This document shows, in pieces, positions 37,895 through 62,161 of a stretch of 64,000 nucleotides of DNA. This DNA is from Candidatus Aminicenantes bacterium (GTDB lineage: Bacteria; Acidobacteriota; Aminicenantia; UBA2199), in contig JAOZUQ010000001.1 in assembly GCA_029938635.1 (NCBI GenBank), forward strand, positions 101,070-165,069, read 5' to 3'. Position 1 is the stretch's first letter, and each line of letters begins with the position of its first letter. The notes under the pieces are model-generated. The model did no database searches, had not been told where the DNA came from, and saw nothing but the letters and a program-made list of their open reading frames with translations. Position numbers and translations under genes: made by a program.

Positions 37895-38018
37895 GCCGTG
37901 GACATGTATTGCTTTTACGGGACTGGCAGCCTGAGTCCGTCAATATCGGACGGAAGGCGGGCGTCCAGAAAAATACCAGCAGGATTTTGCGGTAGTAAAA
38001 GTAAATACGGCCAGAGGC
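37895..38018 (+). repeat. Structured intergenic repeat, copy E1 (subtype I)
   Basis: Outer stem GTATTGCTTTTAC/GTAAAAGTAAATAC; inner hairpin GTCCG-TCAATAT-CGGAC; second hairpin; TTTTGCGGTAG junction shared with 62032-62161. Confidence 0.7.
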
Positions 38019-38057
38019 ATATCTGAACCCCTTGAACCAACGTTTACAGTGGAAATA

Positions 38058-39083
38058 CTATTTCAGGTCGTGGACATAAAGCTCCCAGACCTCTTCATCA
38101 ACATCATCGACAAGCTGGTATAGCTTTCCATCCTTTATGGTATAGGGGTAAAGATCTCTTGCTGTTGCTTCCGGAATCTGAAGATAGATATTATCCTTAA
38201 GAAGCTTCCAGTTAAGGTCATACACTTCAAACTCTGTCTTACCGTCCGGCCCCGGATATCCATTAACATAAAGTTTTTCATCAACAACATCCATACCCCT
38301 GATGACCGGAAAGGTTGATGGAAACTGGAATTGAGCTTTAACTGCTTCATAAAAATTCTTAGTCTGAGGATCTGTTCTGAAATATTCGTGATACCTCTTT
38401 ATATCCGAGTCTCTGACCTTCAGTTTTTTCAATCCGCATTTAAGTTCTTTCTTAATATCTCCATTATGATCAAAGATCAGCACATATCCTTCCCTCTCTC
38501 CGGTTATGAATATTTGATTTTTATATAATCTGAACCATGCTCCCCATGTCCTCAGAGGATTAAGTTTTCTCCCCTGCTGAAAGAACTGAGGCTCTTTATA
38601 TACCTGTTTGATCTTTTTCATTTCAGAATCATAAAGTTCAACAGTTGAATAATTTATTTTCTTCTTTTTGTCCTGGTAACCACTATAAGAAACAAATTTT
38701 TCTCCGAAAGGTTTATAAACATTTGCAAGTCCGGCACCTTTCGGCCTCTTCTCACTTAAAAACTTTCCATTCCTAGTATAATAGGAAATCTTCATATGAC
38801 TTCCGATGACTATCTTGTCAGGATTTTCCGGATCTTTCTGGATCCTGATGTATTGCGAGAACTCCTGCGGCCCATCTCCCTTTTTTCCGAATTTGGTTAT
38901 TAAACTGAAATCTTTTTGTGAATAAACATAAACGGTCGGGAACTCAGTAATAAGGATCTGCCCGCCATCAACTACAATATTTCCGGGCTTATTGATCTCA
39001 GCCAGTTCTACACCATTTTCTCCTCCGGAAATAAATGGTGATAACAGAGTTAAAGAGAATAAAACGATCAGATGTTTTTTCAT
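38058..39083 (-). CDS. Secreted 6-bladed beta-propeller protein
   Basis: Signal peptide; FGKKGDGPQEF NHL-like motif; beta-rich. Confidence 0.75.
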   Translation of the reverse strand: MKKHLIVLFSLTLLSPFISGGENGVELAEINKPGNIVVDGGQILITEFPTVYVYSQKDFSLITKFGKKGDGPQEFSQYIRIQKDPENPDKIVIGSHMKISYYTRNGKFLSEKRPKGAGLANVYKPFGEKFVSYSGYQDKKKKINYSTVELYDSEMKKIKQVYKEPQFFQQGRKLNPLRTWGAWFRLYKNQIFITGEREGYVLIFDHNGDIKKELKCGLKKLKVRDSDIKRYHEYFRTDPQTKNFYEAVKAQFQFPSTFPVIRGMDVVDEKLYVNGYPGPDGKTEFEVYDLNWKLLKDNIYLQIPEATARDLYPYTIKDGKLYQLVDDVDEEVWELYVHDLK

Positions 39084-39133
39084 AAAATCCTCCTTACAAT
39101 ATAACTAACGTATAGAAAAGAAATTTGTTTAGA

Positions 39134-39841
39134 TCAGATAGAATTTTCTACTATTTTCACCTTCAGGCGGGAGAGATATTCCGTTATCTTGATATCCTTG
39201 GGACATGCTTCCATACAATTGAAAATAGTATGACATCTCCATATCCCATTCTTATCATTTACTATATCCATCCTGTCATTTGCCCCGTCATCCCTGGTAT
39301 CAAAGATGAATCTATACGCCCTGAGCAAAGCTGCGGGTCCCAGATAATCTTCATTCCCCCACAGGCTCGGGCAGGATGAGGTACAGGCTCCACAGAGAAT
39401 ACACGTCACCGATTCTCTGATGTGTTCAAATTCCTCTGGAGATTGTGTAAATTCCTTGTCCGGAAGAGGTTTGTCAACAATCAGATAAGGTTTCACCTTT
39501 TTTAATTTTTCAAAGAAAAGATCCATATCAACTACCAGATCTTTAATTATTGAAAATCCGGGAAGCGGTTCGATCTTTATTTTCCCTTTGAACTTGTGAA
39601 TAGGTGTCTCACATGCAAGAATATTCTGGCCGTTCACCTTCATTGCGCAGGAACCGCAAATTGCGCTTCTGCAAGATCTCCGGTATGCTAGCGAACCATC
39701 AATCTTCCAGTGGATTTCATTCAGAACATCGAGAATTGTGGAATCAGAATCATATTCACCTGTATAATCAACCCAATGCGGTTTTTTATCATTTGCTGGA
39801 TCGTATCTTAAAATTTTTATTACTCTTTTCTCTTTTGACAT
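39134..39841 (-). CDS. sdhB: Succinate dehydrogenase Fe-S subunit
   Basis: SCRSAICGSCAM, CILCGACTSSCP, CHTIFNCMEACP. Confidence 0.95.
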   Translation of the reverse strand: MSKEKRVIKILRYDPANDKKPHWVDYTGEYDSDSTILDVLNEIHWKIDGSLAYRRSCRSAICGSCAMKVNGQNILACETPIHKFKGKIKIEPLPGFSIIKDLVVDMDLFFEKLKKVKPYLIVDKPLPDKEFTQSPEEFEHIRESVTCILCGACTSSCPSLWGNEDYLGPAALLRAYRFIFDTRDDGANDRMDIVNDKNGIWRCHTIFNCMEACPKDIKITEYLSRLKVKIVENSI

Positions 39842-39852
39842 CTGATAGCTCC

Positions 39853-41589
39853 TTAATATTTTCTTTCAAGCGGCGGGAATCTGTCCATGTAAATGATCGC
39901 TTTTCTTGTATGATCAAGCTTTACACCCTTAGCTGTTTTCCATGCAAAAGTATGCTTCATCCATTTCTTGTCATCACGTTTCGGATGATCTGTCCTGAAG
40001 TGAGCGCCTCTCGATTCTTTCCTCGCAATTGCTCCTTCGATCATAACCTCTGAAAAACTCAAAAGATTTCCGACCTCGAATGCTTCGAAAAGATCCATAT
40101 TGTAAGCATCACCCTTATCATCAATTGTAACCTTTTTATATCTTGCCTGAAGCTCTTTGATGACCTTCATGAGTTTCTTCATATCCTTCTCATTCCTGTA
40201 AACTCCGGCATACTTAGTCATATTCTCCTGAAGTTCTTCTTTGAGAACTGAATGGCGCTCCTTCCCCTTTCCTTCCATTAATGCCGATACTTTCCCTCTG
40301 GCATTATCGGTTTCATTTGCAGGAAGATTTTCCAGCCCGTTATTTTTCACGAATTCAGACATTGAGGTCCCTGCGACTCTTCCGAATGTCGCTGCTTCCT
40401 GTAGAGAATTTGTCCCGAGTCTGTTTGCACCATGAAGAGACAGGCATGAGGTCTCGCCTGCAGTATAAAGGCCGACAACAATGTCACCCTTCGGATTTTT
40501 CAAAACTTCGGTGTTTATATTTGCCGGAATTCCGCCCATCGAATAGTGTGCTGTCGGTTGAATGGGAACCGGCTCATTGATCATATCAACCTTAAGATAG
40601 TTAATAGCAAGATCTCTTACCTGAGGTAATCTTTTTATGATCTTCTCTTCACCAAGATGCCTCATGTCGAGGTAAACGTAATCATCTCCATTACCCCCAC
40701 GGCCTTCATTTATTTCCGTCTGTTCAGATCTGGAGACAACATCTCTCGGTGCGAGCTCCATTTTTTCTTTTGCATATTTTTCCATGAACCTTTCGCCTTT
40801 TCCGTTAGTAAGATAACCACCTTCTCCACGACAGGCCTCAGACATCAATATTCCATGTTTAAAAAGACCGGTAGGATGGAATTGGACAAACTCCATATCT
40901 TCGAGAGGAAGTCCGTTCTCAAGGATCAGGCCGAGGCTGTCTCCTGTATTGGCATGGGCATTGGAAGTAACCTTAAATGCCCTTCCGTATCCCCCGGTAG
41001 CAAGAAGGACAGCTTTTGCATGAAACGTATGGAGCCCTCCGTTTCTGATATCCCAGGCAACAACCCCTCTTGAAATATTCTTTTCCACCAGTAGTGAGAA
41101 AACCTGGAACTCATTATAAAAATGGACATTGTATTTGAGACATTGTTCATATAATGTGTGAAGGAGAACATGCCCGGTTATATCTGCCGAAAAGCATGCC
41201 CTCGGCTTCTGATGGCCACCGAAAGCCCTCTGGTTTATCCTTCCATCCTCGGTTCTGGAGAAAGGAACACCCATATGTTCAAATTCATAAACAGTTTTTT
41301 TTGCTTCACTGACGAAAAATTCGATTATATTCTGATCACCGAGCCAGTCACTCCCCTTTACTGTATCAAACATATGTAATTCTTCTGAATCATCTGTAGT
41401 ATTTGCCAGGGATGCCGCAATCCCTCCCTGAGCCGCACCCGAATGTGACCTTGTCGGATACACTTTTGTAAGAACAGCTACTTCATGTCCATCCCTTGCA
41501 AGTTCCAGAGCTGCTCTCAGACCAGCCAGTCCGGCACCAACAACAATTGCATCCATCCTGTGATATTTTTTTGCTTCTTCTATGTTCAT
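39853..41589 (-). CDS. sdhA: Succinate dehydrogenase flavoprotein subunit
   Basis: [16 protein letters not shown] (covalent FAD His), [23 protein letters not shown]. Confidence 0.96.
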
Positions 41590-41951
41590 AATTTCGCTCC
41601 AGCTTTAAAAATGGTAAGCATCCCGACGAACATCAGGATGACTCCGAGCATTACCAGAACAGAAAACACAAATATCCTGGTGCCCTTCTTCTTCATATAA
41701 TCTTCCGCAACCATCCATATCCCGTTGATCCCGTGATACAAAGCCGTTAAAAGAAAGAGAAATTGTATCAGATTGAACCAGGGTGCTTTCATCTTTTCAA
41801 TTATATCTACATACTTTACTACCCCATGCCCAATAAAATGGTAAGTCACATAATGTGCCATCAGTAGTACGAATAATACGACAGCCGAGAGTCTCTGAAA
41901 CAACCAGATGATCCCGCCGCTTTTTGAAGTTTCTTTAAAATTCTTGTCCAT
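41586..41951 (-). CDS. sdhD: Succinate dehydrogenase membrane anchor
   Basis: [22 protein letters not shown]; 3 TM. Confidence 0.88.
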
Positions 41952-41960
41952 TACATCCTC

Positions 41961-42332
41961 CTACATGTGGGAAATGATCAAGTATCCACCGGCAACCCAG
42001 AGTGCAAATGCAATAAAGATCATTATGTAAAAAAGTTTTTTATGATTAAGTGATCCTTTCCAGAAGTCAACAATTACAACCCTTATACCGTTGAAAGCAT
42101 GAAATAATATAACTCCCCACAGCCCTATCTCCAGCAATTTAAACAAAGGGGATGCAAGAACTCCCATCACCCTGTTGAAACCTTCCGGCCCTTTTGAAAT
42201 AGTGCTGATAACCCATATGTGAGCTGAAAGATAAAAAATAAGAGCAAGGCCTGAAAGACGATGAAGTATCCATGCCCAGGACCCTGTGAATTTGTAATAA
42301 CTTAGATCAAAGAACTTTTTATCCTTGTACAA
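41961..42332 (-). CDS. sdhC: Succinate dehydrogenase cytochrome b subunit
   Basis: WILHRLSG, AHIW, FHAFNGIR; TTG start behind SD GGAGGAGG. Confidence 0.9.
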   Translation of the reverse strand: MYKDKKFFDLSYYKFTGSWAWILHRLSGLALIFYLSAHIWVISTISKGPEGFNRVMGVLASPLFKLLEIGLWGVILFHAFNGIRVVIVDFWKGSLNHKKLFYIMIFIAFALWVAGGYLIISHM

Positions 42333-42437
42333 TTTTGCCTCCTCCGTACAGAATTATGATTTTTAATTCTAATACGTAGAAGTACTTACTTCAACAAAAA
42401 AATTGATTTTTTTTTGAAAAAGGACTAACCTTTGGAA

Positions 42438-43595
42438 ATGGATGAAAGGGAGAAATACAAAAGCAATTTCAAAGCACCTGAATTCCTGGCATTCGATCGT
42501 CTGATCAAAGATAATCAGTGGTTGATCAAAATCAGATTCTTTTACACCATTTTCGTTTCTGTCTTCTTCATAATACTCAATCTTGCAAATGAGACCGACA
42601 CGGTCAGGCTCAGAGACCTCTCATTGCTCCTCAGTCTGATGGTGATCGGTAATATCCTTTTCAATATAACCCTAAAGAAAGTGATAAGAAAGAAACTTGA
42701 GAACCTGGATTACAAAAGCCTCCAGTCACTTGCAACCGTCCAGATTGATTTTGATTTTGTTCTCCTGTCAATAATTGTCTTCATTTCAGGAGGTGTGAAC
42801 AGCCCTGTCATGATCCTGTACATCTTCTACATTATGATATCCACATTTATTGTGACCCATGATAAAGCCATCAGGAATACTTCAATAGCAATAATTCTGG
42901 TATCTTTAATATTTTTTATAGACAACTCATTCGAGATCAAACAAAGGCTTCCGGTCATGATCTCATATGATTTAATCCTGCTGCTCGCATTTTTTATCTC
43001 CTCCCATCTTTCACTGAACCTTAGAGAGAACAGGGAGATACTCCAGGAACTCCTGAAGAAAACAAGAGACCTCTCGATCAGGGACGGCCTGACAGGCCTT
43101 TTAAATCAGACCCATTTTTTCCAGATGATGGAGGATCACCTGAAAAAAGCGAAAAGATATAACGAAGTGTTCTCCGTCCTTTTATTCGATATAGATAATT
43201 TCAAGAACTATAATGATAACAATGGACATATTAACGGTTCCAGCGTGATAAGAAGGATCGGTCATATTGTCACAGATACTTTCAGGACTTTCGATATCTC
43301 AGCCAGATATGGTGGTGATGAATATGTTATCTTTCTCCCCAACACTGACAAAATAGGATCGTTTCTGGCAGGGGACAGGCTGAGGGAAAGAATTGAAAGA
43401 TCAAAATTCCCGGGAATGGAGAAGCAGCCGCAAGGGAGCGTAACGATCTCCATGGGGATATCATCTTTCCCCGAGGATGGTGAAACCAGAGAAGAGGTCC
43501 TCAATATGGCAGACAAGGCACTCTATTATTCCAAAGAGAATGGGAAGAACCGGGTAACTTTGTTTAAAAAAGAGATCCTTACCGGAGAAGAGTGA
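42438..43595 (+). CDS. Membrane-bound diguanylate cyclase
   Basis: About 6 TM; DGLTGLLN, DIDNFK..ND, RTFD (RxxD I-site) before RYGGDEY; start revised to ATG 42438. Confidence 0.88.
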   Translation: MDEREKYKSNFKAPEFLAFDRLIKDNQWLIKIRFFYTIFVSVFFIILNLANETDTVRLRDLSLLLSLMVIGNILFNITLKKVIRKKLENLDYKSLQSLATVQIDFDFVLLSIIVFISGGVNSPVMILYIFYIMISTFIVTHDKAIRNTSIAIILVSLIFFIDNSFEIKQRLPVMISYDLILLLAFFISSHLSLNLRENREILQELLKKTRDLSIRDGLTGLLNQTHFFQMMEDHLKKAKRYNEVFSVLLFDIDNFKNYNDNNGHINGSSVIRRIGHIVTDTFRTFDISARYGGDEYVIFLPNTDKIGSFLAGDRLRERIERSKFPGMEKQPQGSVTISMGISSFPEDGETREEVLNMADKALYYSKENGKNRVTLFKKEILTGEE

Positions 43596-43617
43596 CCCCC
43601 GTTTCTCCGCTTTATAA

Positions 43618-43646
43618 TTGACATTTTTTACATATTATTATAAACT
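43618..43646 (+). promoter_or_regulatory. Sigma-70 promoter of the hrcA operon (probably leaderless)
   Basis: TTGACA-17 nt-TAAACT, 7 nt before ATG 43654. Confidence 0.65.
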
Positions 43647-43653
43647 TTCCAGT

Positions 43654-44673
43654 ATGTGGATTAGCAAAAGAGATACGGAAATACTGGCTACACTGGTTAA
43701 TTTATACAGTAATACCAGACTTCCGGTCAGTTCTGCACAATTATCAGGCTATCTCCCTTTCTCCTGCTCCCTTATAAGAAAAGAGCTGCAGAAACTTGAA
43801 GCAAACGGACTCATAGAGAAGAGCAGCAGCTCTTCAGGAAGAACACCATCCGACAGAGGTATTAAGATGTATCTGAGAGGGCTTGATAAAATGGTCGAAA
43901 CCGGCCCTCTCTCTCCGGAATTTCTGAAGGCAACCGGAAAGGACTTCAGTGACCTCTCCACAAAAAGTGCCGATCTCCTTTCACGGGAGTCAGATCATAT
44001 AGGCTTTGTTTATTTTGATTCTATTTTCGATCTTGAGTTTAAAAGCTTAAAACTGATAAAGATCGATTCATATAAAATAATGATGATCCTGAGAGGAAGC
44101 AACCAGTGGATATTTTCAAAAATCTTTATAACAAACAGGAATTATTCAGAAGCTGAACTAAAAAACTGGGAGCAGATTCTGAACAAAGAGTTCTCACACC
44201 GTTCCCTGAACAGGGTTTTTAAGATAATAAGGAACAGGCTTTTCAAGGACAAGGAAAGGTATATAAATGTTTACCGGGGTATCTATAATCTCCTCGGGAC
44301 TGAGGACCTTATGACTGCCGATCTTTTCTACAACGGCACTCTGAACCTTCTCAACTCCCGTGTGACAGATACAGAGACCCTGAAAAAAATAATCCGCACA
44401 CTCGAGGAAAAAGAGAGATTTGCAAAGTTCCTCAAGGATATTCTGAACGAAAAGGACAGGAATCCGGTTATCGCATTCGGAGGGGAGTCGGGTATATCTG
44501 AATTTGAAGAGCTTATTCTGATAATTTCAAACTTTTACTGGTCGGAAAACCCAATAGGGAAACTGGGTATAATCGGCCCTAAATTTACAAGATACTCTGA
44601 AACTATAAACAGGGTAAAACATTTTTCAAGTCATATTAGTACAATATTGTCTGAAAACCCCATGGAGGCATAA
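43654..44673 (+). CDS. hrcA: Heat-inducible repressor HrcA (divergent)
   Basis: wHTH PVSS..L...IR.EL..LE..G...SGRTP; C-terminal GKLGIIGP; precedes grpE. Confidence 0.8.
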   Translation: MWISKRDTEILATLVNLYSNTRLPVSSAQLSGYLPFSCSLIRKELQKLEANGLIEKSSSSSGRTPSDRGIKMYLRGLDKMVETGPLSPEFLKATGKDFSDLSTKSADLLSRESDHIGFVYFDSIFDLEFKSLKLIKIDSYKIMMILRGSNQWIFSKIFITNRNYSEAELKNWEQILNKEFSHRSLNRVFKIIRNRLFKDKERYINVYRGIYNLLGTEDLMTADLFYNGTLNLLNSRVTDTETLKKIIRTLEEKERFAKFLKDILNEKDRNPVIAFGGESGISEFEELILIISNFYWSENPIGKLGIIGPKFTRYSETINRVKHFSSHISTILSENPMEA

Positions 44674-45315
44674 ATGAGTGTTGATGATAATGAACTGGAT
44701 ATTGGTTATGTTCCTGATGACCCTGATTTCGGGAAAGATGAGAGAGTTCAGAAGAAACCAGTTGAAAAGAGAGTAGATCAAAAGAAAAAAGCCCAGGTAA
44801 GAAAATCCATCGCCAAACTGAAGGTTCAGGAAAAGGTCATTGAGAAACTAACCACCGAAAGGGATGAGTTTAAAGATAAGTTTCTTCGGAATATGGCAGA
44901 AATAGATAATTTCAGAAAGAGGGTAAAAAAAGAGAAAGAAGAACATCAAAAATATGCTTTGGGAGATTTTCTCAAAGAGCTTTTAGTAATAACCGACAAC
45001 CTTGAGAGAGCCCTGAAGGTCAAAGATGGCGAATCCAGGGAAAATTCGATAGTTTCCGGTGTCGAAATGATCTACAGGCAATTAATAGAAATACTGAACA
45101 AGAATGGAGTGAAAGAGATCGAAGCAATGAACACACCCTTTGATCCCAATATTCACCAGGCTCTTTCCAAAGAAGAGGCTGATTTTGTCTCAGGACCAAC
45201 AATAGTAGAAGTTTATCAGAAAGGATTCACGTATAACGACAAATTGCTGAGGCCGACTCTGGCCAAAGTTGCAATTCCGCCGGAACCGATTATCCAGACC
45301 GATACTCAGGAATAA
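44674..45315 (+). CDS. grpE: Nucleotide exchange factor GrpE
   Basis: AEIDNFRKR, DNLERAL, FDPNIHQA, QKGF...LLRP. Confidence 0.95.
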   Translation: MSVDDNELDIGYVPDDPDFGKDERVQKKPVEKRVDQKKKAQVRKSIAKLKVQEKVIEKLTTERDEFKDKFLRNMAEIDNFRKRVKKEKEEHQKYALGDFLKELLVITDNLERALKVKDGESRENSIVSGVEMIYRQLIEILNKNGVKEIEAMNTPFDPNIHQALSKEEADFVSGPTIVEVYQKGFTYNDKLLRPTLAKVAIPPEPIIQTDTQE

Positions 45316-45319
45316 AAAA

Positions 45320-47134
45320 ATGGCTAAAAATATCGGGATTGATCTTGGTACAACAAATTCATGTATTAGTTTCTTCGAAGGTTCAGTACCTGAGATCATC
45401 CCAAATCCGGAAGGATCAAGGGTCATTCCCTCTATAATATCGCTCAATAAAAACAAAAAACCGATCTTCGGCAATATCGCAAAGAGACAATTCCTTTCAG
45501 ACCCTGAAAATACGATCTGGGGAGTTAAGAGGATCATAGGGAGAAAATTCGATTCTCCGGAGATCGACAAGATAAGAAGCACAGCTGCTTATAACATTGT
45601 TGAAGCTGAAAACGGTGATGCCCATATAGATTTCAACGGAGAGATCTGCACTCCGGAGGAGATCTCTGCAATGTTCCTGAGGTACCTGAAGGGGATAGCA
45701 GAAGATTACCTTGGTGAAAATGTGGGAAAGGTTGTTATCACGGTTCCGGCATTTTTTAATGATGCACAACGATTGGCAACCAAGAACGCCGGTGAAATAG
45801 CCGGACTTGAAATTTCCAGGATCATCAACGAGCCGACATCTGCACTTATCGCATACAGGGACAAGATTAATAAAGATGGCTATTATGCCGTTTATGACCT
45901 TGGGGGCGGTACTTTTGATATTTCTATCATAGAAGTCAAAGATGAGATATTCAAGGTAGTATCAACTCTGGGAGACACTTTCCTCGGAGGAAATGATTTT
46001 GATGCTACTGTTTCGGACTGGATCCTCTCAGAGATCAAAAAGGAGATAAACACTGACCTTTCCGGCAATATGGACAGCATGCAGAGGATAACCCAGGCGG
46101 CCGAGAAAGCAAAGATCGAACTATCTTTTAACTCGGAAACACAAATATCCATCCCTTACCTCTTCCACTCAAAGAAGGGGGGGAATTACCATTTCCAGAA
46201 AAATCTGGACAGAGAAAAACTTGAACTACTTACATCGAAACTGGTGGCAAAGACTATAAAACTTGTCAAGGATTCTATGGGTGAGATCGATCTGGAACCT
46301 GACCAGATTGAAAAAGTACTTCTTGTCGGAGGCCAGAGCAGAATGCCGATGGTCTCCCGTTTTCTGACCGAACTTTTCTCAAAAGAGCCAAAATTCGATC
46401 TGAATCCGGAGGAGGTTGTTTCTATCGGTGCAGCAATGCAGTCCGAACTTCTGCATGGAAGGATAAGAGACCTGTTACTCCTGGATGTTACCCCTTTGTC
46501 CCTCGGGCTTGAAACAAAGGGAGATAAATTTACGAAACTTATTGACAAGAATTCTTCAATACCGATAAAGAAATCGATGATATTCACCACAATAAGCGAT
46601 AACCAGCAGACAGTTAAAATTCACATCCTTCAGGGAGAGAGAGAGATCGCATCTGAAAATAAGCCTCTCGGAGACTTTAACCTGATCGGGATCCCGCTAT
46701 CTCCGAAAGGGTTACCGCAGATCGAAGTAACATTCGAGATAGATGCAAACGGCTTGGTCAAAGTATCAGCAATTGACCTGCAAACCGGATTATCACAGAG
46801 CATGAATGTTCTGCCTGCAAGCGGATTATCACCTGAGAAAATAAAACAATTGATCGAGGAAGCAAAAGAGTTTGAGATAAAGGACCGGGAAACTATCAGA
46901 CTTAACCAGACTGTCGCTAATATTGAAGAAGAAAAAGAGACAATAAAATTCTTCATGGAGCGGTATGAAGACAAGCTTACCGAAAAAGAGATCGGGGAGA
47001 TCGATATCCTGATGACCCAGATAGAAGAGGTCCTGGAGGAAAAGGACATCCCAACAATGACCGGTATGCTGATGAAAACTATTGATATCAGAAAAAGAAT
47101 AAACAACCTGCTCATATCTGATTTTGAGGAATAA
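45320..47134 (+). CDS. dnaK: Hsp70/DnaK chaperone (divergent)
   Basis: GIDLGTTNS, TVPAFFNDAQR, DLGGGTFD, LVGGQSRMP, DLLLLDVTPLSLG; start revised to ATG 45320. Confidence 0.88.
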   Translation: MAKNIGIDLGTTNSCISFFEGSVPEIIPNPEGSRVIPSIISLNKNKKPIFGNIAKRQFLSDPENTIWGVKRIIGRKFDSPEIDKIRSTAAYNIVEAENGDAHIDFNGEICTPEEISAMFLRYLKGIAEDYLGENVGKVVITVPAFFNDAQRLATKNAGEIAGLEISRIINEPTSALIAYRDKINKDGYYAVYDLGGGTFDISIIEVKDEIFKVVSTLGDTFLGGNDFDATVSDWILSEIKKEINTDLSGNMDSMQRITQAAEKAKIELSFNSETQISIPYLFHSKKGGNYHFQKNLDREKLELLTSKLVAKTIKLVKDSMGEIDLEPDQIEKVLLVGGQSRMPMVSRFLTELFSKEPKFDLNPEEVVSIGAAMQSELLHGRIRDLLLLDVTPLSLGLETKGDKFTKLIDKNSSIPIKKSMIFTTISDNQQTVKIHILQGEREIASENKPLGDFNLIGIPLSPKGLPQIEVTFEIDANGLVKVSAIDLQTGLSQSMNVLPASGLSPEKIKQLIEEAKEFEIKDRETIRLNQTVANIEEEKETIKFFMERYEDKLTEKEIGEIDILMTQIEEVLEEKDIPTMTGMLMKTIDIRKRINNLLISDFEE

Positions 47135-47135
47135 A

Positions 47136-53674: not shown

Positions 53675-54376
53675 ATGAAGATCTGGAAATATTTGCTCAT
53701 ATTAGCAATGACTACATTTATTGTTTATTGTTTAGCAGGTGAAAAAGAAACCTTCGTATTATGTCTCGGTGACAGTATCACGGATAGCGAATGGGGAAAT
53801 TACCCGACACACCTGAACAAATTATTTGTAAAAAGAGATGTAGCATATACCGCGATTTCGCGTGGAATACCAGGAAATACTTCGGGAGAATATTTAGAGT
53901 TCTTTTCGAAGTCAAAAATGATGAAAAAATTCAGGCCTAAAGTAATCGTTATAATGCTCGGTACAAATGATGTCAGGATCGATCATGACAGAACTTCGAC
54001 AAAAAAATTCAAAAAAAATATGTCGGAAATTATAAATATAATCAAGGCATTTGAAAAAAAGGAAAAGTATAAAATAGATGTATATCTCTGCACGATCCCG
54101 CCGATCTTCACCACCGATCTCAATACATTTACCAAAGAATCAGCAATAAGGGTAAATGAGGAAATCGTTCCGGCTATTGAAGAGTTATCGGTTGAACACG
54201 ATCTGGAATTGATCGACCTCCACTCGGTCTTTGAAAGGAACAAGGACCTCCTCCCAGGAATCCACCCGTCCCCGGGCGGCTACTACAAGATAGGCAAAGT
54301 AATATTCAACCGGATCATGCGCGACTCCCGGACAAGCATCCTGCCATGCAGCGGAGACACCTGCAATATAAATTAG
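53675..54376 (+). CDS. SGNH/GDSL hydrolase, exported
   Basis: LGDSIT, G..G, LGTND, GIHP. Confidence 0.85.
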   Translation: MKIWKYLLILAMTTFIVYCLAGEKETFVLCLGDSITDSEWGNYPTHLNKLFVKRDVAYTAISRGIPGNTSGEYLEFFSKSKMMKKFRPKVIVIMLGTNDVRIDHDRTSTKKFKKNMSEIINIIKAFEKKEKYKIDVYLCTIPPIFTTDLNTFTKESAIRVNEEIVPAIEELSVEHDLELIDLHSVFERNKDLLPGIHPSPGGYYKIGKVIFNRIMRDSRTSILPCSGDTCNIN

Positions 54377-54458
54377 CCTGAAGTTGCAGGAATAACATCA
54401 GAAGCTAAACCTGGCCTACAGCCATCAGCTTTCAGCTCCAGCAAAAACAAAATTTTAT

Positions 54459-54558
54459 GTAGGGGCGACTCCCCGTCACACTCTCTAAAGCACTGGTGAT
54501 TCTATGGTCGCCCATATTTACAAGAATTATAGAACAGGATAGACGCGAGGCCTACCCC
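54459..54558. repeat. GTAG-type REP pair (REPIN-like)
   Basis: GTAGGGGCGAC...GTCGCCC, then a degenerate inverted unit GGATAGAC-GCGAG-GCCTACCCC. Confidence 0.6.
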
Positions 54559-54592
54559 TTGTACTGAATATTTCAAGATTCGGGCAGGCTAC

Positions 54593-54625
54593 AATCATGG
54601 CAATCATGTGAATCATGGTTCAGAC
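54593..54625 (+). repeat. 9-nt period AATCATG tandem repeat ending GGTTCAGAC
   Basis: AATCATG at 54593, 54602 and 54611; overlaps the methyltransferase stop codon. Confidence 0.6.
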
Positions 54626-55288
54626 TATAATTTCACAAAATACAGAAGATTCATCCACTTCATATACCTTTGCCTGCAAATCCAGGCTTGAGGCCATTTT
54701 CATGAAGTCTTTTTCAGTATATGTTGTTGCCATGAATCCATCTTCACAGACTATATTTCCATTCCCGGTTTTTTTTTGATCAATCTTCCCTATCAACCCG
54801 AGATCAGCCTGTACTTCGAACCATTCAAGCCTGGTTTCCCAGATCTTTTCCGAATAACTTGAAAAGAGGATAGAACCTCCACTCCGGGTTACCCTGACCG
54901 TTTCACTGATCAATTTTTCCGGATCCGACTTGAATGCGGATATCCCGTTCTGGACACAGATGACAAGATCAAAAATATCATCTTTGAATTTCAGGTCAGC
55001 CGCATCCATAACAAAGAATTCCATATTTGATCTTCCTCTGCAAATTTCTCCGGCAAGTTCTATATTATCTTCCGAAATATCGATCCCGGTCACTTTCCCG
55101 GCCTTGTCAGCCAGCCTTACCGCTACCCTTCCATAACCGCATCCCAGATCCAGAACCGATGAACCTTCCTGCGCCTTATCCAGAACATGAAGGATCTCGG
55201 CCTCAAGGAATTGCTTTATCCTTGGTGTAGAAACCTCATAACACTTCACAAGCCGGGCTGAATTTAATGATTTTGAATAATAGTCCAT
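54620..55288 (-). CDS. Class I SAM-dependent methyltransferase
   Basis: VLDLGCGYGR, GIDIS, DA..L.F..FDLV. Confidence 0.88.
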   Translation of the reverse strand: MDYYSKSLNSARLVKCYEVSTPRIKQFLEAEILHVLDKAQEGSSVLDLGCGYGRVAVRLADKAGKVTGIDISEDNIELAGEICRGRSNMEFFVMDAADLKFKDDIFDLVICVQNGISAFKSDPEKLISETVRVTRSGGSILFSSYSEKIWETRLEWFEVQADLGLIGKIDQKKTGNGNIVCEDGFMATTYTEKDFMKMASSLDLQAKVYEVDESSVFCEIIV

Positions 55289-55297
55289 AAAATAAAA

Positions 55298-58200
55298 TTA
55301 TTTACCGATGACTTCAGGCACTGTTTCCAGGTTGTAATCTATGTGATCTTCAGGTAATAATTTTATAACCTCATCAACCAGCTCTCTTAATTCGACAATA
55401 TAATAGTTTGCTACATTAATATTCTTTTCAATATCATCAATGCTGATAATAAAACGGAGCTGGGTGCCGTCTTTTACCCCTTTGTAATAATAATTCTCTT
55501 TAAATTCATCCAATGGGAATCCCGAGAGAAACTCTTTTATCCCCGATGACTCTTCATGGGTTAGAACCCGATTAATAAGTGTATAGTCCTTCTGATTTAG
55601 CACAATAGATGATTCACTCATCAATTGTTCATGGGTAACAATAATCCTGATGTTCTCCCGCCCGAAATAATATTTAATGATCTCGATCTTAAACTTTTTA
55701 ATATCTTTATTCATATTTTCTGCCTCTCTGTTCTCTAATCTATGCTTGTCCTTTTCCTTACTTTCACGGTACATATCCGCCACGTTATCTATCTTCGGAG
55801 ATCTTTTGACCGCCTTCCAATCAAATTTTTCATCAAATGGGTCAAGCGCTTTTTGAGGCTCGAAAATCCTACTATCAACTGCTATAGCATCATAAGGTTT
55901 GTAATCTGGAGTATCTGTGAAAAAATCAGCCAGATCAGTAGCTCCGGCATCATACTGATTTAAGTACGGAAGGGCCAGAATATTCCAGAATGTCTTGAAC
56001 AAACTGCCGAAACTATAATGAACATGACTTACATAATCCCTTTTTACCCATGGGGAAACAATCATAAGCAAACTGCGGTGAGCATCAATATGATCTACAC
56101 CATTTTGTGCATCATCTTCTGTTATGACGATCAACATACTTTTCCAATAAGGTGTCCTTGAAAGATATTCCACAATACGGCCGACAGCCAGATCATTATC
56201 CGCCATATAACTCTCGCGGAAAGGGTAACCTGCATCAGGGCGATCGCCTGCTCCATGGTCATTTGGAATGATCACCGTAATAAATTCCGGCATTGTATCA
56301 CTGCCTGTAATCCATTTTTTATCAAACTCCTTTATAAACTGATCTATTCTGAATTGATCAGGAATTGCCATATTATATGTCGGGTACATTCTGGAAGTAC
56401 GTTCAAAAAGGGGCTGCGGAACCGGATAATTTATATAATGTTTAATTCCTGTATATTTATACTCAACCTTATAAAGTCCCGGTTCGAACATTATGCTGAA
56501 GCCGAAATTATAGAACCGGACATCATGACGTTCCAGATGATCCCACATGGACCCTGCTTCATTATAATCTTCCGGATAAATTGCACCGGCAGTCCCATTC
56601 ATCCCAAACACCCCAGGTGCCTTCGAATTTTCCCGATAATTACGATTATTGCCATAACTGGCTGCAGTTGACGTTTCACACCACTCATTCGGGTATGTGT
56701 TTACCAGCCAGCGGTGTCCATCAGCAGACACATCAGAATCGACATAAAAATTATCTGAAATGGCAAACTGCCCGGCGAGTGCCAGATGATTGGGCATAAC
56801 CACAGCATTGGAAACAGAGCTTGTCTTATCTCTGTTTGAAAACGTCGCACCTTTTCCATATCTTGCCAACGACGGATCACCTTCAGTATTTTTTATCTGC
56901 CCGAAAACTTCATCATAGGTTCTGTTTTCCTTTGAAATAAAAACAATGTGATGAATAGGGCTGATCTTTTCTCCGGGGAATAATGGAATTGGATTGCTCT
57001 TCCTACTTTTAAAAACCGGATCATCGGCTTTTCTGAATTTAAAATTATTCGAAATGACCTGTGCAGTCAATTTTTTCAATTGTTGATCATCAGGAATCTC
57101 CACTACCTGAATGGTCCCTTTCATTAAGGAACCGATGTAACTTCCCTCCGGTCCCCTTTCAAAAGCTGCCCCCCCGTTCGGACCGCTCCCATATCCCTTT
57201 GCATTGGCGATAATCAGATATTTTCCGTTTTTGCTGACTTCGACCTTTGAGGGAAACCAGCCCGTCGGAATATGACCTAGAACTTTCAGATCTACAGCAT
57301 TTATAACTGCAACTGCATTTATTCCCGACTCTGCAACATATAACCTTTTCCTGTCCGGACTTAACGCCAGGCCGAAAGGGATTACCCCCCTGAACTGTTT
57401 TATCCGGTTTTCAGGTTTAAGATATATAGTGTCGACCACATTATCTTCTTTCAAAGAAATTACAGAGATACTATCATTTGTACCATTGCTGACAAATACA
57501 TATTTATCATTTGCAACAATTGAGTTGGGACTGGATCCTCCAACTGCCGGGATCCCCTCTACTAATGCGCCCACCAAATGTCCGGTTTTTATTCTGCCAA
57601 CAACTACCGGATCTGTTTTAGACTTAAGATCAATAACAAAAACAGAGAACGCCTCAATAGCATTCGGATCACCAAGGCCGGGAATTGACACCGACTCATT
57701 TTGTATCCCCTCAATCATCTCTTTTGAACCATAGGGGAAAGGGGGGAAATCTATTGGTTTTACTTTAGATCTATCCCCCGATCCCCCTCTTATCAGAGAA
57801 TATTCAAACATTCCAACATTGGCTACATAAATTTTTCTCTCATCAGGAGAGAGACAGATACCGAACGGGTAACGTCCCACAGGGACAGAGTGTTTCAGAG
57901 TTCCGGCAATTGTGTCTATAACAACCACTCTGAATCCAATCTGATCCACTGCATAGAGAGTTTTGCCATCCTTTGTTAATTTCAGGTCACCTATATATCC
58001 ATGTGAATAATCTACTTTCTCAGAAATATAAGAACAGTCTATAACACCCGTCCTCTCCCCGGAATTGACATCGAACAAATATATCCTGTTTGCCTGCCCA
58101 CCTGCAACATAAATTGTTTTATTGTCAGGTGATATTGCCAGACCCATAAACACAGAGGCCAATACTCCCTTATCGGAAGAAGGACCGGGCGGTATCTGCT

Positions 58201-58513
58201 TTACTTCAGGATGTGATGATAAAATATTTCGGACAATGGTAATTGATAGTGGATCTACCCCGGAATTTGAAGTGACTACAGTTTGCCCGTCCGGACTGAG
58301 AGTCAATCCATAAGGATGAGGTGCAGTTATTATACTTTTCCCTGAGGGGGTAATATATCTGCCATTAGGGATCACCGTTCTTCCGTTCTTATTGATATTT
58401 GTAAATTCATCTCCTGCAGGTGCTGATATTATCCATAAACCCTTATGCTTTGAATTATCCTGCAGACAACTCAACGTTAAAAACACCATTATCAGAAGTA
58501 CAATTTTTTTCAT
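55298..58513 (-). CDS. YVTN/YncE beta-propeller + phosphoesterase (phospholipase C-like) lipoprotein with extra C-terminal domain
   Basis: Lipobox LTLSC; VG..P.G..LSPD repeats; KENRTYD, DNFY, SADGH, PNDH, EDDAQNGVDHIDAHR. Confidence 0.85.
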   Translation of the reverse strand: MKKIVLLIMVFLTLSCLQDNSKHKGLWIISAPAGDEFTNINKNGRTVIPNGRYITPSGKSIITAPHPYGLTLSPDGQTVVTSNSGVDPLSITIVRNILSSHPEVKQIPPGPSSDKGVLASVFMGLAISPDNKTIYVAGGQANRIYLFDVNSGERTGVIDCSYISEKVDYSHGYIGDLKLTKDGKTLYAVDQIGFRVVVIDTIAGTLKHSVPVGRYPFGICLSPDERKIYVANVGMFEYSLIRGGSGDRSKVKPIDFPPFPYGSKEMIEGIQNESVSIPGLGDPNAIEAFSVFVIDLKSKTDPVVVGRIKTGHLVGALVEGIPAVGGSSPNSIVANDKYVFVSNGTNDSISVISLKEDNVVDTIYLKPENRIKQFRGVIPFGLALSPDRKRLYVAESGINAVAVINAVDLKVLGHIPTGWFPSKVEVSKNGKYLIIANAKGYGSGPNGGAAFERGPEGSYIGSLMKGTIQVVEIPDDQQLKKLTAQVISNNFKFRKADDPVFKSRKSNPIPLFPGEKISPIHHIVFISKENRTYDEVFGQIKNTEGDPSLARYGKGATFSNRDKTSSVSNAVVMPNHLALAGQFAISDNFYVDSDVSADGHRWLVNTYPNEWCETSTAASYGNNRNYRENSKAPGVFGMNGTAGAIYPEDYNEAGSMWDHLERHDVRFYNFGFSIMFEPGLYKVEYKYTGIKHYINYPVPQPLFERTSRMYPTYNMAIPDQFRIDQFIKEFDKKWITGSDTMPEFITVIIPNDHGAGDRPDAGYPFRESYMADNDLAVGRIVEYLSRTPYWKSMLIVITEDDAQNGVDHIDAHRSLLMIVSPWVKRDYVSHVHYSFGSLFKTFWNILALPYLNQYDAGATDLADFFTDTPDYKPYDAIAVDSRIFEPQKALDPFDEKFDWKAVKRSPKIDNVADMYRESKEKDKHRLENREAENMNKDIKKFKIEIIKYYFGRENIRIIVTHEQLMSESSIVLNQKDYTLINRVLTHEESSGIKEFLSGFPLDEFKENYYYKGVKDGTQLRFIISIDDIEKNINVANYYIVELRELVDEVIKLLPEDHIDYNLETVPEVIGK

Positions 58514-58728
58514 TTATTCCCCATCCAGTGCAATAATTATACCTATAATAGAAATTAATAGAAGAGGGGATGGAATCACCAACGCCTAGTGATATATTTT
58601 TTTGTTTTTGGCTGGGACTAAGCACTTTTTAAATGGGTCAGACACAATTGTTCGCCTGAAATAAAAAAATGATTATAATTCATCTTTTTGTTAAAGAATT
58701 ACGTATATATTATATGACGGAGGGAAAT

Positions 58729-59064
58729 ATGGAGATAACAAAAAGAAATAATGGAGATATTACAATACTTGATCTGGACGGAAAATTACTTACAGGAAAT
58801 GATGTAGGATATTACAGAGATGTATTCGACACATTGATAAAAGGCGGAGAATCAAAGGTTATATTAAATTTTGCAAATCTCAGCATGATGGACTCAACTG
58901 GATTGGGGGAACTTACCCGGTCTTATACAAAAGCAAAGAATAATGGCGGAATGGTAAAACTGGTAAACATGACCGCAAGGATCAAGGATATCCTGTATGT
59001 CACAAAACTGATAACAGTTTTTGACACCTACGAGAATGAGGAAGATGCCGTTAACAGTTTTTAA
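58729..59064 (+). CDS. STAS-domain anti-sigma factor antagonist
   Basis: DSTGLG phospho-Ser motif; start revised to ATG 58729 after SD GGAGGG. Confidence 0.9.
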   Translation: MEITKRNNGDITILDLDGKLLTGNDVGYYRDVFDTLIKGGESKVILNFANLSMMDSTGLGELTRSYTKAKNNGGMVKLVNMTARIKDILYVTKLITVFDTYENEEDAVNSF

Positions 59065-59089
59065 TAGTTAATAATTCTGAATTCCGGAT

Positions 59090-59263
59090 CTATTTTCCGA
59101 GGAATTTTTGAACTTTTTGTGACGATGCTCCTGCAAACTTTACTGCTGCTACCAGGCTTCCTTCCTCAACTCCGAAAAATTCACTCCACTCTTTTACATC
59201 TTGCGGATCATTAATATTAATTTCTTTTCCTTCTTTAATCTGCATTACTTTGTCTTCTGACAT
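59090..59263 (-). CDS. DUF3606-like small protein (57 aa)
   Basis: Manual translation MSEDKVMQIKEGKEININDPQDVKEWSEFFGVEEGSLVAAVKFAGASSQKVQKFLGK*; SD AGGAG; shorter than any ORF in the track. Confidence 0.75.
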   Translation of the reverse strand: MSEDKVMQIKEGKEININDPQDVKEWSEFFGVEEGSLVAAVKFAGASSQKVQKFLGK

Positions 59264-59451
59264 AATTCACTCCTATTATCATTTTGTTCTGGTTTTTATA
59301 TTTAGAATGCCTCTTTTTCAAAAACATCCGATATAACGGATGTGAAGTCATGTCTTTTTCAAACCGGACTATAAACTCATCCAATTTATTTTAAAATGTA
59401 AAATACATCAACTTTAAACATAATGCAACTCAAAAAATAAAAAAAATTTTT

Positions 59452-59497
59452 CTGATCCTGCTACTCAATAGCAAAACACCGAAACGCCACATCTTGG
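59452..59497 (-). repeat. Degenerate left arm of the subtype I structured repeat
   Basis: Minus strand CCAAGATGTGGCGTTTCGGTGTTTTGCTATTG aligns with CCAAGACAAGTGGCGCTTCCGTGTTTTACTTTTG at 62023-62056. Confidence 0.6.
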
Positions 59498-59535
59498 CAA
59501 CCAAAATGAGTGATATTTATTTAGAAGAAAGATTA

Positions 59536-59669
59536 AGGCGTAGCCATCTATCTGCACTCGTGGGCCTGGAGGGGTGACTCGCTAATATCGAGAACCCCGA
59601 GGCCGGGCAGCATAGCCGTATGAGAGCATACGGCGCGGGAGCGAAGTAGATGATGGCGAAAGCCAAAAA
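59536..59669 (+). repeat. Structured intergenic repeat, copy E3 (subtype II)
   Basis: AGGCGTAGCCATCTAT...GGGGTGACTCG-CTAATAT-CGAGAACCCC...GCCGTATG-AGAG-CATACGGC...GTAGATGATGGCGAAAGCCAAAA. Confidence 0.85.
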
Positions 59670-59677
59670 TATTTATT

Positions 59678-60376
59678 TTATTTAAAGAATATTTTCAGAT
59701 TAAGCATCATCTTACGAAATTTAATAAAAGGGATCACAATAGCCGGGGACGAATATCTGGCAGGTTTTTTCTTCATAGATTTCATAATATGTTTTACAGC
59801 TTTTTTAACCGGCATTATGAAAGGTTTCACATCACCCTTTGCCATCTTCGTATTAACAAAGCCGAACCGGACATTAGTTATCTTCACAGGAGTGTCTTCC
59901 AATGCAAGGGCCATACTTTCCAGATAGCTGGTAAACCCTGCCTTCGATGCATGATAGGCCGGACTGTCATACGAGTGCATCTCATCTGCAAAACTTGAAA
60001 GGCCTATAAAATGGCCTTTGCCATTCTCTTCCATCGCCGGGATCACAACAGAGACAGTTCTCACCATCCCCATCAAATTTATATCAAGGGTCTTGATATC
60101 CATATCCATATCATCCAGATCCAGTAATTCTCCTATCCCCGGACAATAGATACAAAGGTCAGGCGGGCCTTCTTTCTTAACTATTTTTTTCAACTTGATT
60201 ACATATTCATTATCGGTAACATCACACACAATATGATTGTAGGATGAATTTTTGACTGGTGATCTGCTCCTTGAAAATCCATTGACTATCCATCCATCTT
60301 GTAATAATTTTTTGGTAATAGCCAGCCCGATACCATCCGAATTCCCGATAATTATTGCCTTTCTATTCATAAACAT
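59678..60376 (-). CDS. Short-chain dehydrogenase/reductase
   Basis: GNSDGIG, YHASK, FGFVNTKM. Confidence 0.88.
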   Translation of the reverse strand: MFMNRKAIIIGNSDGIGLAITKKLLQDGWIVNGFSRSRSPVKNSSYNHIVCDVTDNEYVIKLKKIVKKEGPPDLCIYCPGIGELLDLDDMDMDIKTLDINLMGMVRTVSVVIPAMEENGKGHFIGLSSFADEMHSYDSPAYHASKAGFTSYLESMALALEDTPVKITNVRFGFVNTKMAKGDVKPFIMPVKKAVKHIMKSMKKKPARYSSPAIVIPFIKFRKMMLNLKIFFK

Positions 60377-60386
60377 CCCTCAACTT

Positions 60387-60896
60387 TTACCATTTTCCTG
60401 CATAGGATAATGAATTGCCTGACAGGTGTTTATGATAATTAAATTTAAGGCCGAGTATCTGTCTCAAATGAAGATAATCGTGGGCAAGCCAGTTGGAGAG
60501 GAACATCTTCGCTGTCATTTTTCCGAACACAGGGTGGTCATGTGCGTTATCCCATGAGGGATTTACTAAACTACGTATCCATTCGATCGACCATTCTCTC
60601 TCCATCAGAAATTTTTCCACCGTGTTATTAAAGTCCTGTTCAATATATTTTCTATCTGCTACCCATCCCGGGGGATCGATCGGGCTTAGTGACTTTTCCG
60701 GATCTTCCATTACCGATTTTATTCTTGCTCTGAAATCTTCCTTCTCCTCATCATAAAGATGGCAGGCCACCTCCAGGAGGCACCATTTCCCGGGTTCAGG
60801 TTTCCACAAATATTCTTCTCTGGTCAATCCGGAAAAAAGTTTTTTGAAAATATCCTTGTTCATAGAAAATTCATCAACAATTCTTACTATGTCCAT
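60387..60896 (-). CDS. DinB family protein
   Basis: WKPEPGKW..LE..CHL.DEE; AHDYLHLRQ. Confidence 0.88.
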   Translation of the reverse strand: MDIVRIVDEFSMNKDIFKKLFSGLTREEYLWKPEPGKWCLLEVACHLYDEEKEDFRARIKSVMEDPEKSLSPIDPPGWVADRKYIEQDFNNTVEKFLMEREWSIEWIRSLVNPSWDNAHDHPVFGKMTAKMFLSNWLAHDYLHLRQILGLKFNYHKHLSGNSLSYAGKW

Positions 60897-60926
60897 TAGG
60901 CTTTTCCCCTTTTTCAGGTGATAAAT

Positions 60927-61679
60927 CTATTTCTTTGTCTTGATATAAATATGTTTTATATGTCTCTTCCCGCTGTCTCTTTCATCAACAAGAAAATATT
61001 TTTTTAAAGATTTTATCAATGGTGTCAATTTCGAGAAGCCATAATTCCTGGGGTCAAAATCAGGTTTCTTCTTAATAATCAGGGAACCAACCTCGGCTAA
61101 AAATGCCCACCCGTCATCATCAGCTATATCATCAACTGAAGAAACGATTAATTGAATAAATTTATTATCTATCGGCTCTACTTCATCTCCCTGTGAAGGT
61201 GCTGTCTTTGTAGAAGTTTGCTGTTTGCTCCCCTTTTTACGACTGATTATTTCAATATAAATAAACTTATCACATGCCACTATGAAAGGCTTCGGAGTCT
61301 TTTTTTCACCTATCCCGATCACGACCTTCCCCGATTCTCTTAACCTTGTTGCCAGTCTTGTGAAATCACTGTCACTTGAGACAAGGCAGAATCCATCCAC
61401 TTTTTGACTATGCAGAATATCCATTGCATCAATTATCATTGCAGAGTCGGTTGCATTTTTCCCGACCGTATAACTATATTGCTGGATCGGAGTTATCGCA
61501 TGCTCAAGTAGTGATTTTTTCCAGCCCGAAACTGTCGGCTTCGTCCAGTCGCCATATATCCTTTTAATCGTCGGCACTCCCAATTTTGCGATCTCATCAA
61601 GCATCTCTTTTATATTTGAATACGGTATATTATCGGCATCAATAAGTACTGCCAAGTTTAAATCATTTTTTTCTCTCAT
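60927..61679 (-). CDS. NYN (LabA/DUF88) domain protein with C-terminal LOTUS/OST-HTH
   Basis: LIDADN, IYGDW, GKNATD...IDAMD, SSDSDF, FDPRNYGFSKL. Confidence 0.92.
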   Translation of the reverse strand: MREKNDLNLAVLIDADNIPYSNIKEMLDEIAKLGVPTIKRIYGDWTKPTVSGWKKSLLEHAITPIQQYSYTVGKNATDSAMIIDAMDILHSQKVDGFCLVSSDSDFTRLATRLRESGKVVIGIGEKKTPKPFIVACDKFIYIEIISRKKGSKQQTSTKTAPSQGDEVEPIDNKFIQLIVSSVDDIADDDGWAFLAEVGSLIIKKKPDFDPRNYGFSKLTPLIKSLKKYFLVDERDSGKRHIKHIYIKTKK

Positions 61680-61798
61680 ATTATCCCCCTTACTGTAACT
61701 AAATAGTAGATCAATTACACAAATATGATATCACATTCAAATGATTTATTGTTGATTCGGCTTTCATAAATAACTGTGTATTATTTATCTGTGAAATA

Positions 61799-61824
61799 GT
61801 GGCTTTTCCCGTAATTACTTTTGG
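61799..61824 (-). repeat. Isolated right arm of the subtype I repeat
   Basis: Reverse complement CCAAAAGTAATTACGGGAAAAGCCAC matches 62136-62161 at 25/26. Confidence 0.75.
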
Positions 61825-61849
61825 AGTTAAGGAATTTACAAATATCATT

Positions 61850-61987
61850 CAGTTTTGGCTTTCGCCATCATCCACATCGCTCCGCTACGGATATTCTCAT
61901 CCGCTTAACGCTGCTTGTCCCCGGGGTGATCGATATTAACGAGTCACCCCTGAGGTGCCCGCTTATGCAGATGGATGGCTACGCCTG
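61850..61987 (-). repeat. Structured intergenic repeat, copy E4 (subtype II)
   Basis: Minus strand CAGGCGTAGCCATCCAT...GGGGTGACTCG-TTAATAT-CGATCACCCC...CGGATG-AGAA-TATCCG...GTGGATGATGGCGAAAGCCAAAACTG; colinear with E3. Confidence 0.85.
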
Positions 61988-62031
61988 AAACTCCCTGCTG
62001 GCAAAAACCATTTCTTTTATTCCCAAGACAA

Positions 62032-62161
62032 GTGGCGCTTCCGTGTTTTACTTTTGCGGGGCCAAATCCGAAGTCTCGCTAATATCGAACTGAGGATTTT
62101 CGCCCAGCGAAAAATGATAAGCATTTTTGCGGTAGCCAAAAGTAATTACGGAAAAAGCCAC
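62032..62161 (+). repeat. Structured intergenic repeat, copy E2 (subtype I)
   Basis: GTGGC..CCGTG..TTACTTTTG / CAAAAGTAA.TACGG..GCCAC outer stem; TCG-CTAATAT-CGA loop; AAAAATG-ATAAG-CATTTTT hairpin; GCGGTAG. Confidence 0.8.

Follow-up and report, generated by a model that had tools for sequence, protein, structure and literature searches.

Correia/NEMIS, ERIC and pneumococcal BOX elements are structured bacterial repeats that resemble miniature inverted-repeat transposable elements (MITEs), and cis-acting roles in transcripts have been proposed for the Correia elements as well as for REP/BIME sequences. A further repeat of this general kind was found in Candidatus Aminicenantes bacterium (Acidobacteriota), in a stretch of 64,000 nt termed the window (assembly GCA_029938635.1, contig JAOZUQ010000001.1, positions 101,070 to 165,069 of the forward strand). 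The element has a core of ~135 nt, which folds into a three-way junction on one defined strand. The fold is conserved over a taxonomic family, the copies cluster in intergenic regions and their loci turn over between relatives.

The element shares several properties with the REP/REPIN-RAYT system. It is short, non-coding, intergenic and multi-copy, folds as a single strand in a strand-specific manner, forms mosaics and shows no target duplication; mobilisation would be in trans, and its genome carries RAYT-like genes. However, it is a 135-nt three-way junction with conserved loops, whereas REP sequences are palindromes of 20-40 nt or doublets, and the RAYT-like genes are bordered by GGGGACGGTNC and spread more widely than the element. 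Like Correia/NEMIS, ERIC and BOX, it falls within 100-150 nt, is intergenic, contains long hairpins and has terminal inverted repeats in some subtypes. Mosaics of several module types recall BOX, and possible outward promoter-like ends recall the Correia-type group. Unlike these families, it was found without a target duplication or a parent insertion sequence (IS), and its internal fold covaries family-wide while the termini change. Palindrome-associated transposable elements (PATEs) of the IS200/IS605 group are similarly strand-specific, structure-dependent and free of target duplications. Their asymmetric ends also have a counterpart here, with the 5' end at a stem and a 3' tail carrying a box, and subtype A copies of the element closely follow a fixed short sequence, in one orientation. 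The differences are one joint fold instead of separate subterminal hairpins, inverted ends in subtypes B and C, and the absence from the draft of a Y1 TnpA of ~150 aa or a TnpB, as only Y1 frames of ~300 aa were found. Integron attC sites are likewise single-stranded, defined by their fold, 60-140 nt long and sometimes branched. They have conserved core sites at their ends, which the stem ends of the element, as read from the sequence, lack; its copies are dispersed in both orientations rather than in cassette arrays, and no integrase link was found. Orphan multi-copy RNA motifs of Rfam are also covarying, multi-stem and lineage-restricted, but no Rfam 15 family matched any subtype. Failing the REPIN, classical MITE, IS200/IS605 derivative, attC and Rfam tests sets the element apart among structured bacterial repeats.

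The source of the window is a draft genome, G000, of 3.05 Mb in 137 contigs with 37.7% G+C and 92.7% completeness. All genomes compared were draft metagenome-assembled genomes (MAGs), and gene and open reading frame (ORF) calls were crude. A seed profile built on 20 copies (nhmmer) detected 26 near-full copies in G000, along with about a dozen fragments, several at contig ends. The original prediction had distinguished two unrelated outer-stem subtypes; the genome has at least three, A with 12 copies, B with 7 and C with 7. All three helices differ in sequence between the subtypes, which have a common layout. The structure was drawn up manually from the 14 copies of subtypes B and C and used for covariance model R1, which contained no A-type sequence. 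A second model, R2, was built from 53 copies of G000 and nine relatives, aligned to R1. A genome scan with R1 gave 28 matches in G000, so that many copies were added to the four first noticed in the window. The element is the main dispersed repeat of this draft, which has no recognisable insertion sequences.

The core is closed by a long stem, P0/P1. P2 is a long bulged hairpin, in which a G-C pair closes a 7-nt loop, YYAAUAU. P3 is a short hairpin with a GAGAA-like loop, and the junction strands are nearly fixed as G, A and GGUA. In the 14 B and C copies, 88% of the cells paired and 13 pairs changed on both sides. Neither value was reached in any of 500 shuffles, and slid controls showed 33-46% pairing. 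R1 recovered all 12 A-type copies in G000 with E-values, rough for R1 as for R2, of 1e-6 to 1e-10. Since no A-type sequence had entered the model, this was an independent test that subtype A has the same fold. In the alignment of 53 copies, 86.2% of the cells paired, compared to 66.7% after shuffling and 33-45% when the partner was slid; both sides had changed in 40 of 46 pairs and double changes occupied 475 cells versus 164 expected, figures that come from mutually related copies fitted to R1 and are not probabilities. The layout was kept across seven genera although the stems carry new sequences. The loop had been proposed to be invariant, which held only within this genus. In divergent members, with all stems rewritten, the P2 pentaloop started with AA (AAUAU, AAUGC, AAUGU, AACAU and similar) except for AGAGA in one genus, the P3 loop was of the GAGAA/GAGCA type and a junction strand read UA(A)AG.

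When the named strand and its complement were folded, the named strand was the more stable one in all copies compared, 26 of 26 in G000 (mean -54.5 versus -45.8 kcal/mol) and 25 of 25 in relatives (mean -51.0 versus -42.2 kcal/mol), an average difference of ~9 kcal/mol over 51/51 copies. A different repeat, the 'central' module, showed the opposite sign in 8 of 8 copies, which argues against a bias built into the measure. It follows from the asymmetry that selection acts on the element as one strand with a fixed polarity. This strand could be RNA or single-stranded DNA (ssDNA); both tolerate G-T wobble. The cautious proposal of a functional three-way-junction RNA or ssDNA was thus supported by compensatory changes across subtypes and genera and by the strict strand asymmetry. 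Two other readings of the core were rejected. A coding function or type I toxin was discarded as the short frames starting in P3 were wholly different between subtypes and had no ribosome-binding sites when read by eye, and a tRNA-like anticodon loop as U, C or A can occupy the second position of the loop.

In the window, the element and its associated modules comprised the following features:

28089-28261, no strand: inverted GGGGACGGTTC pair (28089-28099 and 28251-28261), read from the sequence, around a decayed copy
28122-28234, + strand: decayed A-type copy, the fifth copy in the window (nhmmer E 6.7e-4)
37893-38020, + strand: copy 1, subtype C, loop CGTCAATATCG at 37938-37948 (R1 122 bits; z -4.83)
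59511-59518, + strand: box TGATATTT, 16 nt 5' of copy 2 in direct orientation
59535-59666, + strand: copy 2, subtype A, loop at 59580-59590 (R2 106 bits; z -4.91)
61800-61839, - strand: 'half element', the 3' strand alone of a B-type outer stem, after a box; a recurrent module
61840-61848, - strand: box reading ATGATATTT on the - strand, immediately 3' of copy 3
61855-61987, - strand: copy 3, subtype A, loop at 61931-61941 (R1 37.9 bits; R2 104 bits; z -4.71)
62032-62161, + strand: copy 4, subtype B, loop at 62077-62087 (R1 158.5 bits; z -4.69)

The four copies were where the original prediction had placed them, with model matches at 37879-38027 (+), 59521-59673 (+), 61848-62001 (-) and 62018-62168 (+). 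Their RNA fold z ranged from -4.69 to -4.91, and none of 200 shuffles per copy folded as well. The loop motif CGYYAATATCG occurred four times in the 64 kb, once per element, with 0.11 occurrences expected and none of 100 dinucleotide-preserving shuffles reaching four. Copy 2 was found by R1 with 45 bits (E 6.5e-10) despite the absence of A-type copies from the model. The predicted layout of outer stem, loop-capped long hairpin, CAGC, second hairpin, GCGG(T/G)AG and outer stem also held in the window copies. Copies 1 and 4 have the inner part of the outer stem in common and differ in the long hairpin.

A short-chain dehydrogenase gene (59678-60376, - strand) converges on copy 2, with 12 nt between the end of the copy and the stop codon. 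Copy 3 is oriented towards a NYN-domain gene (60927-61679, - strand), and copy 4 diverges from copy 3 and is located upstream of a promoter-like aroB site at 62204-62232. The decayed copy retained both outer-stem strands and carried AT-rich sequence in place of the hairpins. It fits exactly between the inverted GGGGACGGTTC pair, ~60 nt 5' of a tRNA gene (28323-28406). The GGGGACGGTTC repeat also borders RAYT-like genes elsewhere in G000, and in G007 a full copy, likewise enclosed by such a pair, is present at the syntenic locus (L051). Directly 5' of copy 1, at 37845-37885, a C/T-rich and then purine-rich inverted repeat (CTCTCCC-AGA-GGGAGA) was observed, and the copy at C37 is also preceded by a similar CTCTCCC stretch.

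R1 matched 8 of 61 related genomes, comprising G000, six of the seven other genomes of its genus and one genome of a second genus. With R2, 23 of 72 genomes of one taxonomic family matched, in 7 of 18 genera. They held from one to at least 34 matches each, counts that were taken from at most 43 scored candidates per genome and are lower bounds, and ~200 matches at E up to 0.001 altogether. Sampling across the class gave matches in 18 of 65 genomes from this family and in none of 85 genomes from 11 other families. G005, a 96% complete genome in the genus of G000, had zero matches with R2. A strict pattern scan of 185,579 species genomes returned 61 stretches; the model confirmed four loci, all of the same genus, and the remaining 57 were chance matches. 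The same scan of viral contigs gave two stretches, neither confirmed by the model, and no match was found by blastn in plasmid and phage collections. The sequencing runs containing the window stretch were labelled as hydrothermal vent, cold seep, marine and sediment metagenomes.

Novelty against Rfam, as originally suggested, was confirmed. The whole window gave only a tRNA at the gathering threshold of Rfam 15, nothing was found on the elements in 59400-62300 at E up to 10, and 12 loci of G000 had no match at E up to 1. For 15 loci of divergent members, four weak matches at E up to 1 each lay outside the element. No subtype matched within this scope, which includes self-cleaving ribozymes, riboswitches and Acidobacteria-specific motifs. 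A literature search for repetitive elements or noncoding RNA of Aminicenantes returned nothing relevant.

In one genus (g14; L150-L152, from G092, G090 and G075), an MFS transporter gene and the gene of a PP-loop ATPase (TilS-like) flank a single copy. The copies of G092 and G075 have opposite orientations, and G090 has a tandem duplicate. As a home locus of the element in single-copy genomes, this site was rejected, as no candidate partner is present there and the orientation flips between G092 and G075.

Occupation of loci varied between relatives. In G000, copies 3 and 4 are located between the NYN-domain gene and aroB, a spacer that is free of the element in G002, G006 and G003. On metagenome contig L153, with an aroB product 89% identical, copy 3 is kept at the same place and the site of copy 4 is taken up by a central module, along with a half element and a fragment of subtype A. 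L153 also carries a B/A pair upstream of a STAS gene, where G000 has none. An indel of 104 nt (61754-61857) was seen in run X2 and in L153, where 61753 is joined to 61858 through 7 unrelated nucleotides. The contigs from four DNA runs aligned to the window in pieces broken at the repeats and showed no clean empty site. Loci C12, C11, C48, C10 and C104 were shared between species, C10 and C48 with different subtypes in the two, and other loci were occupied in one species only, in both directions. The suggested behaviour as a non-autonomous element is in line with these data, as the copies behave as dispersed, variable DNA.

The copies rarely stand alone, as most adjoin another module or a box. 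The box ATGATATTT covers 9-19 nt, often ~19, and is situated 15-25 nt past the 3' end of about half the copies. Copies of G001, G004, G013 and G023 have other flanks, often other long inverted repeats. The central module is ~165 nt long with at least 10 copies, ends in the box, has compensatory changes of its own and folds on the opposite strand. One example, L001:266-426 (C103:3515-3675), gave 14 blastn hits, 8 of them full-length and 2 nearly so; this module has outward-facing ATGATATTT boxes at its ends, occurs in two subtypes, folds opposite to the adjacent A-type element and had no Rfam match. Another box-ended module finishes in the same 3' sequence as the central module. The half element after a box was also detected in C103, C132, C89, C17 and C63, and module orders recur, such as half element, central module and A-type copy. 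Hybrid copies were observed at L005:370-470 (C17:39820-39920) and, in G002, at L050:200-380. Both start with a C-type 5' half, followed by a linker of ~25 nt (GCGGCAAGGTGAAT...), common to both, that leads into an A-type 3' half or into a core without the outer stem. The hybrids suggest recombination between subtypes. Copies of G004 (L036, L041, L048 and L054) are surrounded by short repeats of other kinds, namely hairpins of GGGCGAAATGCCTTTCGCCC and runs of CTTCTGACTTCTG, in a repeat landscape unlike that of G000.

The dispersed and variable placement and the swings in copy number, together with the fold, its strand and the conserved loops and junction, fit a folded single-stranded element spread in trans. 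The interpretation proposed here, held with somewhat less than even confidence, is a lineage-specific interspersed element without ORF, whose ~135-nt core acts as one defined single strand. Machinery of the host, or machinery missing from the assembly, would copy it in trans to new sites and would recognise the folded core via the two loops and the junction. The intermediate would be single-stranded, either ssDNA or RNA, and new copies may land preferentially by existing boxes or modules. Intact cores were found beside decayed flanking boxes, so that the core probably also serves a function at its site, the simplest being that of a transcribed RNA bound by protein.

Several observations weigh against spread in trans as proposed. 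Neither a target-site duplication nor a clean empty-site junction was found in any comparison, and these comparisons of occupied and empty sites were made between diverged genomes, in which a short duplication may have been obscured. The terminal box is specific to certain lineages and accompanies only about half of the copies. Some copies, such as that of locus C12 compared with G006, are syntenic across species and have almost unchanged cores, which would fit a conserved gene equally well. No RNA run was among the listed sequencing runs containing the window stretch. RVT_1, DDE_Tnp_1 and OrfB_IS605 were not found in the 92.7%-complete draft, in a search of four enzyme families that did not extend to IS110, IS630, rve or tyrosine and serine recombinases. 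The missing RVT_1 also speaks against a retroelement-borne RNA (retron, group II intron or diversity-generating retroelement), as far as an incomplete draft can show. No dispersed multi-copy ORF of at least 150 aa was present in G000. Four RAYT-like Y1_Tnp (IS200-like) frames of ~300 aa were identified (C56:8127-9002, C20:19456-20382, C12:103000-103911 and C126:12668-13546; L013-L016). All four are located between inverted GGGGACGGTNC repeats and not beside the element; a pattern scan for GGGGACGGTNC gave 39 sites in G000, ~35 of this type. A RAYT-like protein was encoded in 48 of 61 relatives compared to 8 of 61 with the element (R1), and G005 has four RAYT-like genes and zero elements. The comparison of the loop with nick sites of HUH endonucleases hence stays speculative, since the sole HUH genes found carry another repeat and are not co-distributed with the element.

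A more specific mechanism, in which the three-way junction would be the working part of a novel type of mobile element without ORF and the loop would guide insertion by base pairing, was suggested by the exact complementarity of the loop core AAUAUC and the box core GAUAUU in this genus. The loop could pair with a ATGATATTT box in ssDNA or RNA, and a host nuclease, a host ligase or the RNA itself would complete the insertion; the chance that this is correct is considered slim. The sequence GATATTT was also seen ~19 nt upstream of copies in G061 and G068, of another genus. As a general rule, loop-box pairing was rejected, because genera with AAUGC or AAUGU loops have no matching flank motif.

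The main rival explanation, less probable than spread in trans and on balance unlikely, is a multi-copy family of small structured RNA genes, which would encode trans-acting or protein-binding RNAs and have their own promoters, with ATGATATTT as an extended -10 element. A strand-specific fold with conserved loops and junction is typical of functional RNAs, cores remained intact where boxes had decayed, and synteny between species was seen at some loci. The box is similar to an extended -10 and, in the form TGATATTT, precedes 8 of 12 A-type copies by 16-22 nt in the same orientation, which would place the start at the foot of the extended stem. Similar TGn-TAT..T boxes precede two tRNA genes of G000, TGGTATAAT (window 28296-28322, box 28300-28310) and TGATATTTT (C79:13814). 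At C79:13814, TTGACA is present 17 nt upstream and the box is identical to the repeat-associated one. However, the box of four A-type copies lacks its key A, in B and C copies it is inverted or missing, and no upstream motif is common to the subtypes. A consensus scan of 59300-62400 showed no promoter-like or terminator-like site at the three copies there. The numbers among close relatives, from 0 to at least 34 copies with none in G005, and the fast turnover of loci are also unexpected for such genes. The two explanations overlap in part, as a mobile module may well be transcribed.

A role in cis, as a 3' stabiliser, terminator or processing site of neighbouring transcripts that was spread passively, appears improbable in the light of the gene context. 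All copies are intergenic. Relative to the element, the downstream gene converges in 14 copies, often with its stop codon at 12-55 nt, and runs the same way in 11, and 8 of 25 copies are downstream of a same-strand gene. Furthermore, the inverted-box form amounts to a long hairpin followed by AUAUUU on either strand. These positions would suit a cis-acting element. By flanking gene pairs, 13 copies are placed between tandem genes (9 antisense, 4 sense) and 4 between convergent genes. On the other hand, 6 are placed between divergent genes. Copies showed no orientation bias relative to genes although the fold is strand-specific, and the transcripts of the 14 convergent genes would include the less stable complementary strand. 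The scan scored no terminator-like site, and a simple hairpin would suffice for such a role, leaving the three-way junction and the loops unexplained. An enrichment of a gene family beside the copies, raised in the original prediction, was not observed, as there was no link to any gene class.

An ordinary MITE at the DNA level, with terminal inverted repeats used by an unassembled DDE transposase and an incidental fold, has similarly little likelihood. Inversion of the upstream box gives the subtype B and C copies of G000, G003 and G006 terminal inverted repeats of ~19 nt ending in the box, ends that other modules also have, and IS elements are often missing from draft MAGs. Against this, no duplication was found beside these terminal repeats, which are of other kinds or missing in other lineages while the core fold is family-wide, and the boxes of A-type copies are direct and not inverted repeats. 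A double-stranded substrate would not be expected to show compensatory changes and an asymmetry in 51/51 copies. Chance similarity or an assembly artefact, to which the copies at contig ends of the draft MAG might point, has next to no probability, given copies inside long contigs with unique flanks, their presence in 22 other assemblies and one independent metagenome contig, and the four motif occurrences versus 0.11 expected.

A phylum-level lineage that is known from metagenomes only gains a well-supported structured element. The repeats break Aminicenantes assemblies at contig ends, and the covariance model can be used to flag them. The deep conservation of the fold and the strict strand specificity, combined with rapid gain, loss and reshuffling of copies, suggest a dedicated partner that reads the folded single strand. 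Such a partner could reveal a new route by which non-coding DNA spreads, or a new RNA-protein system.

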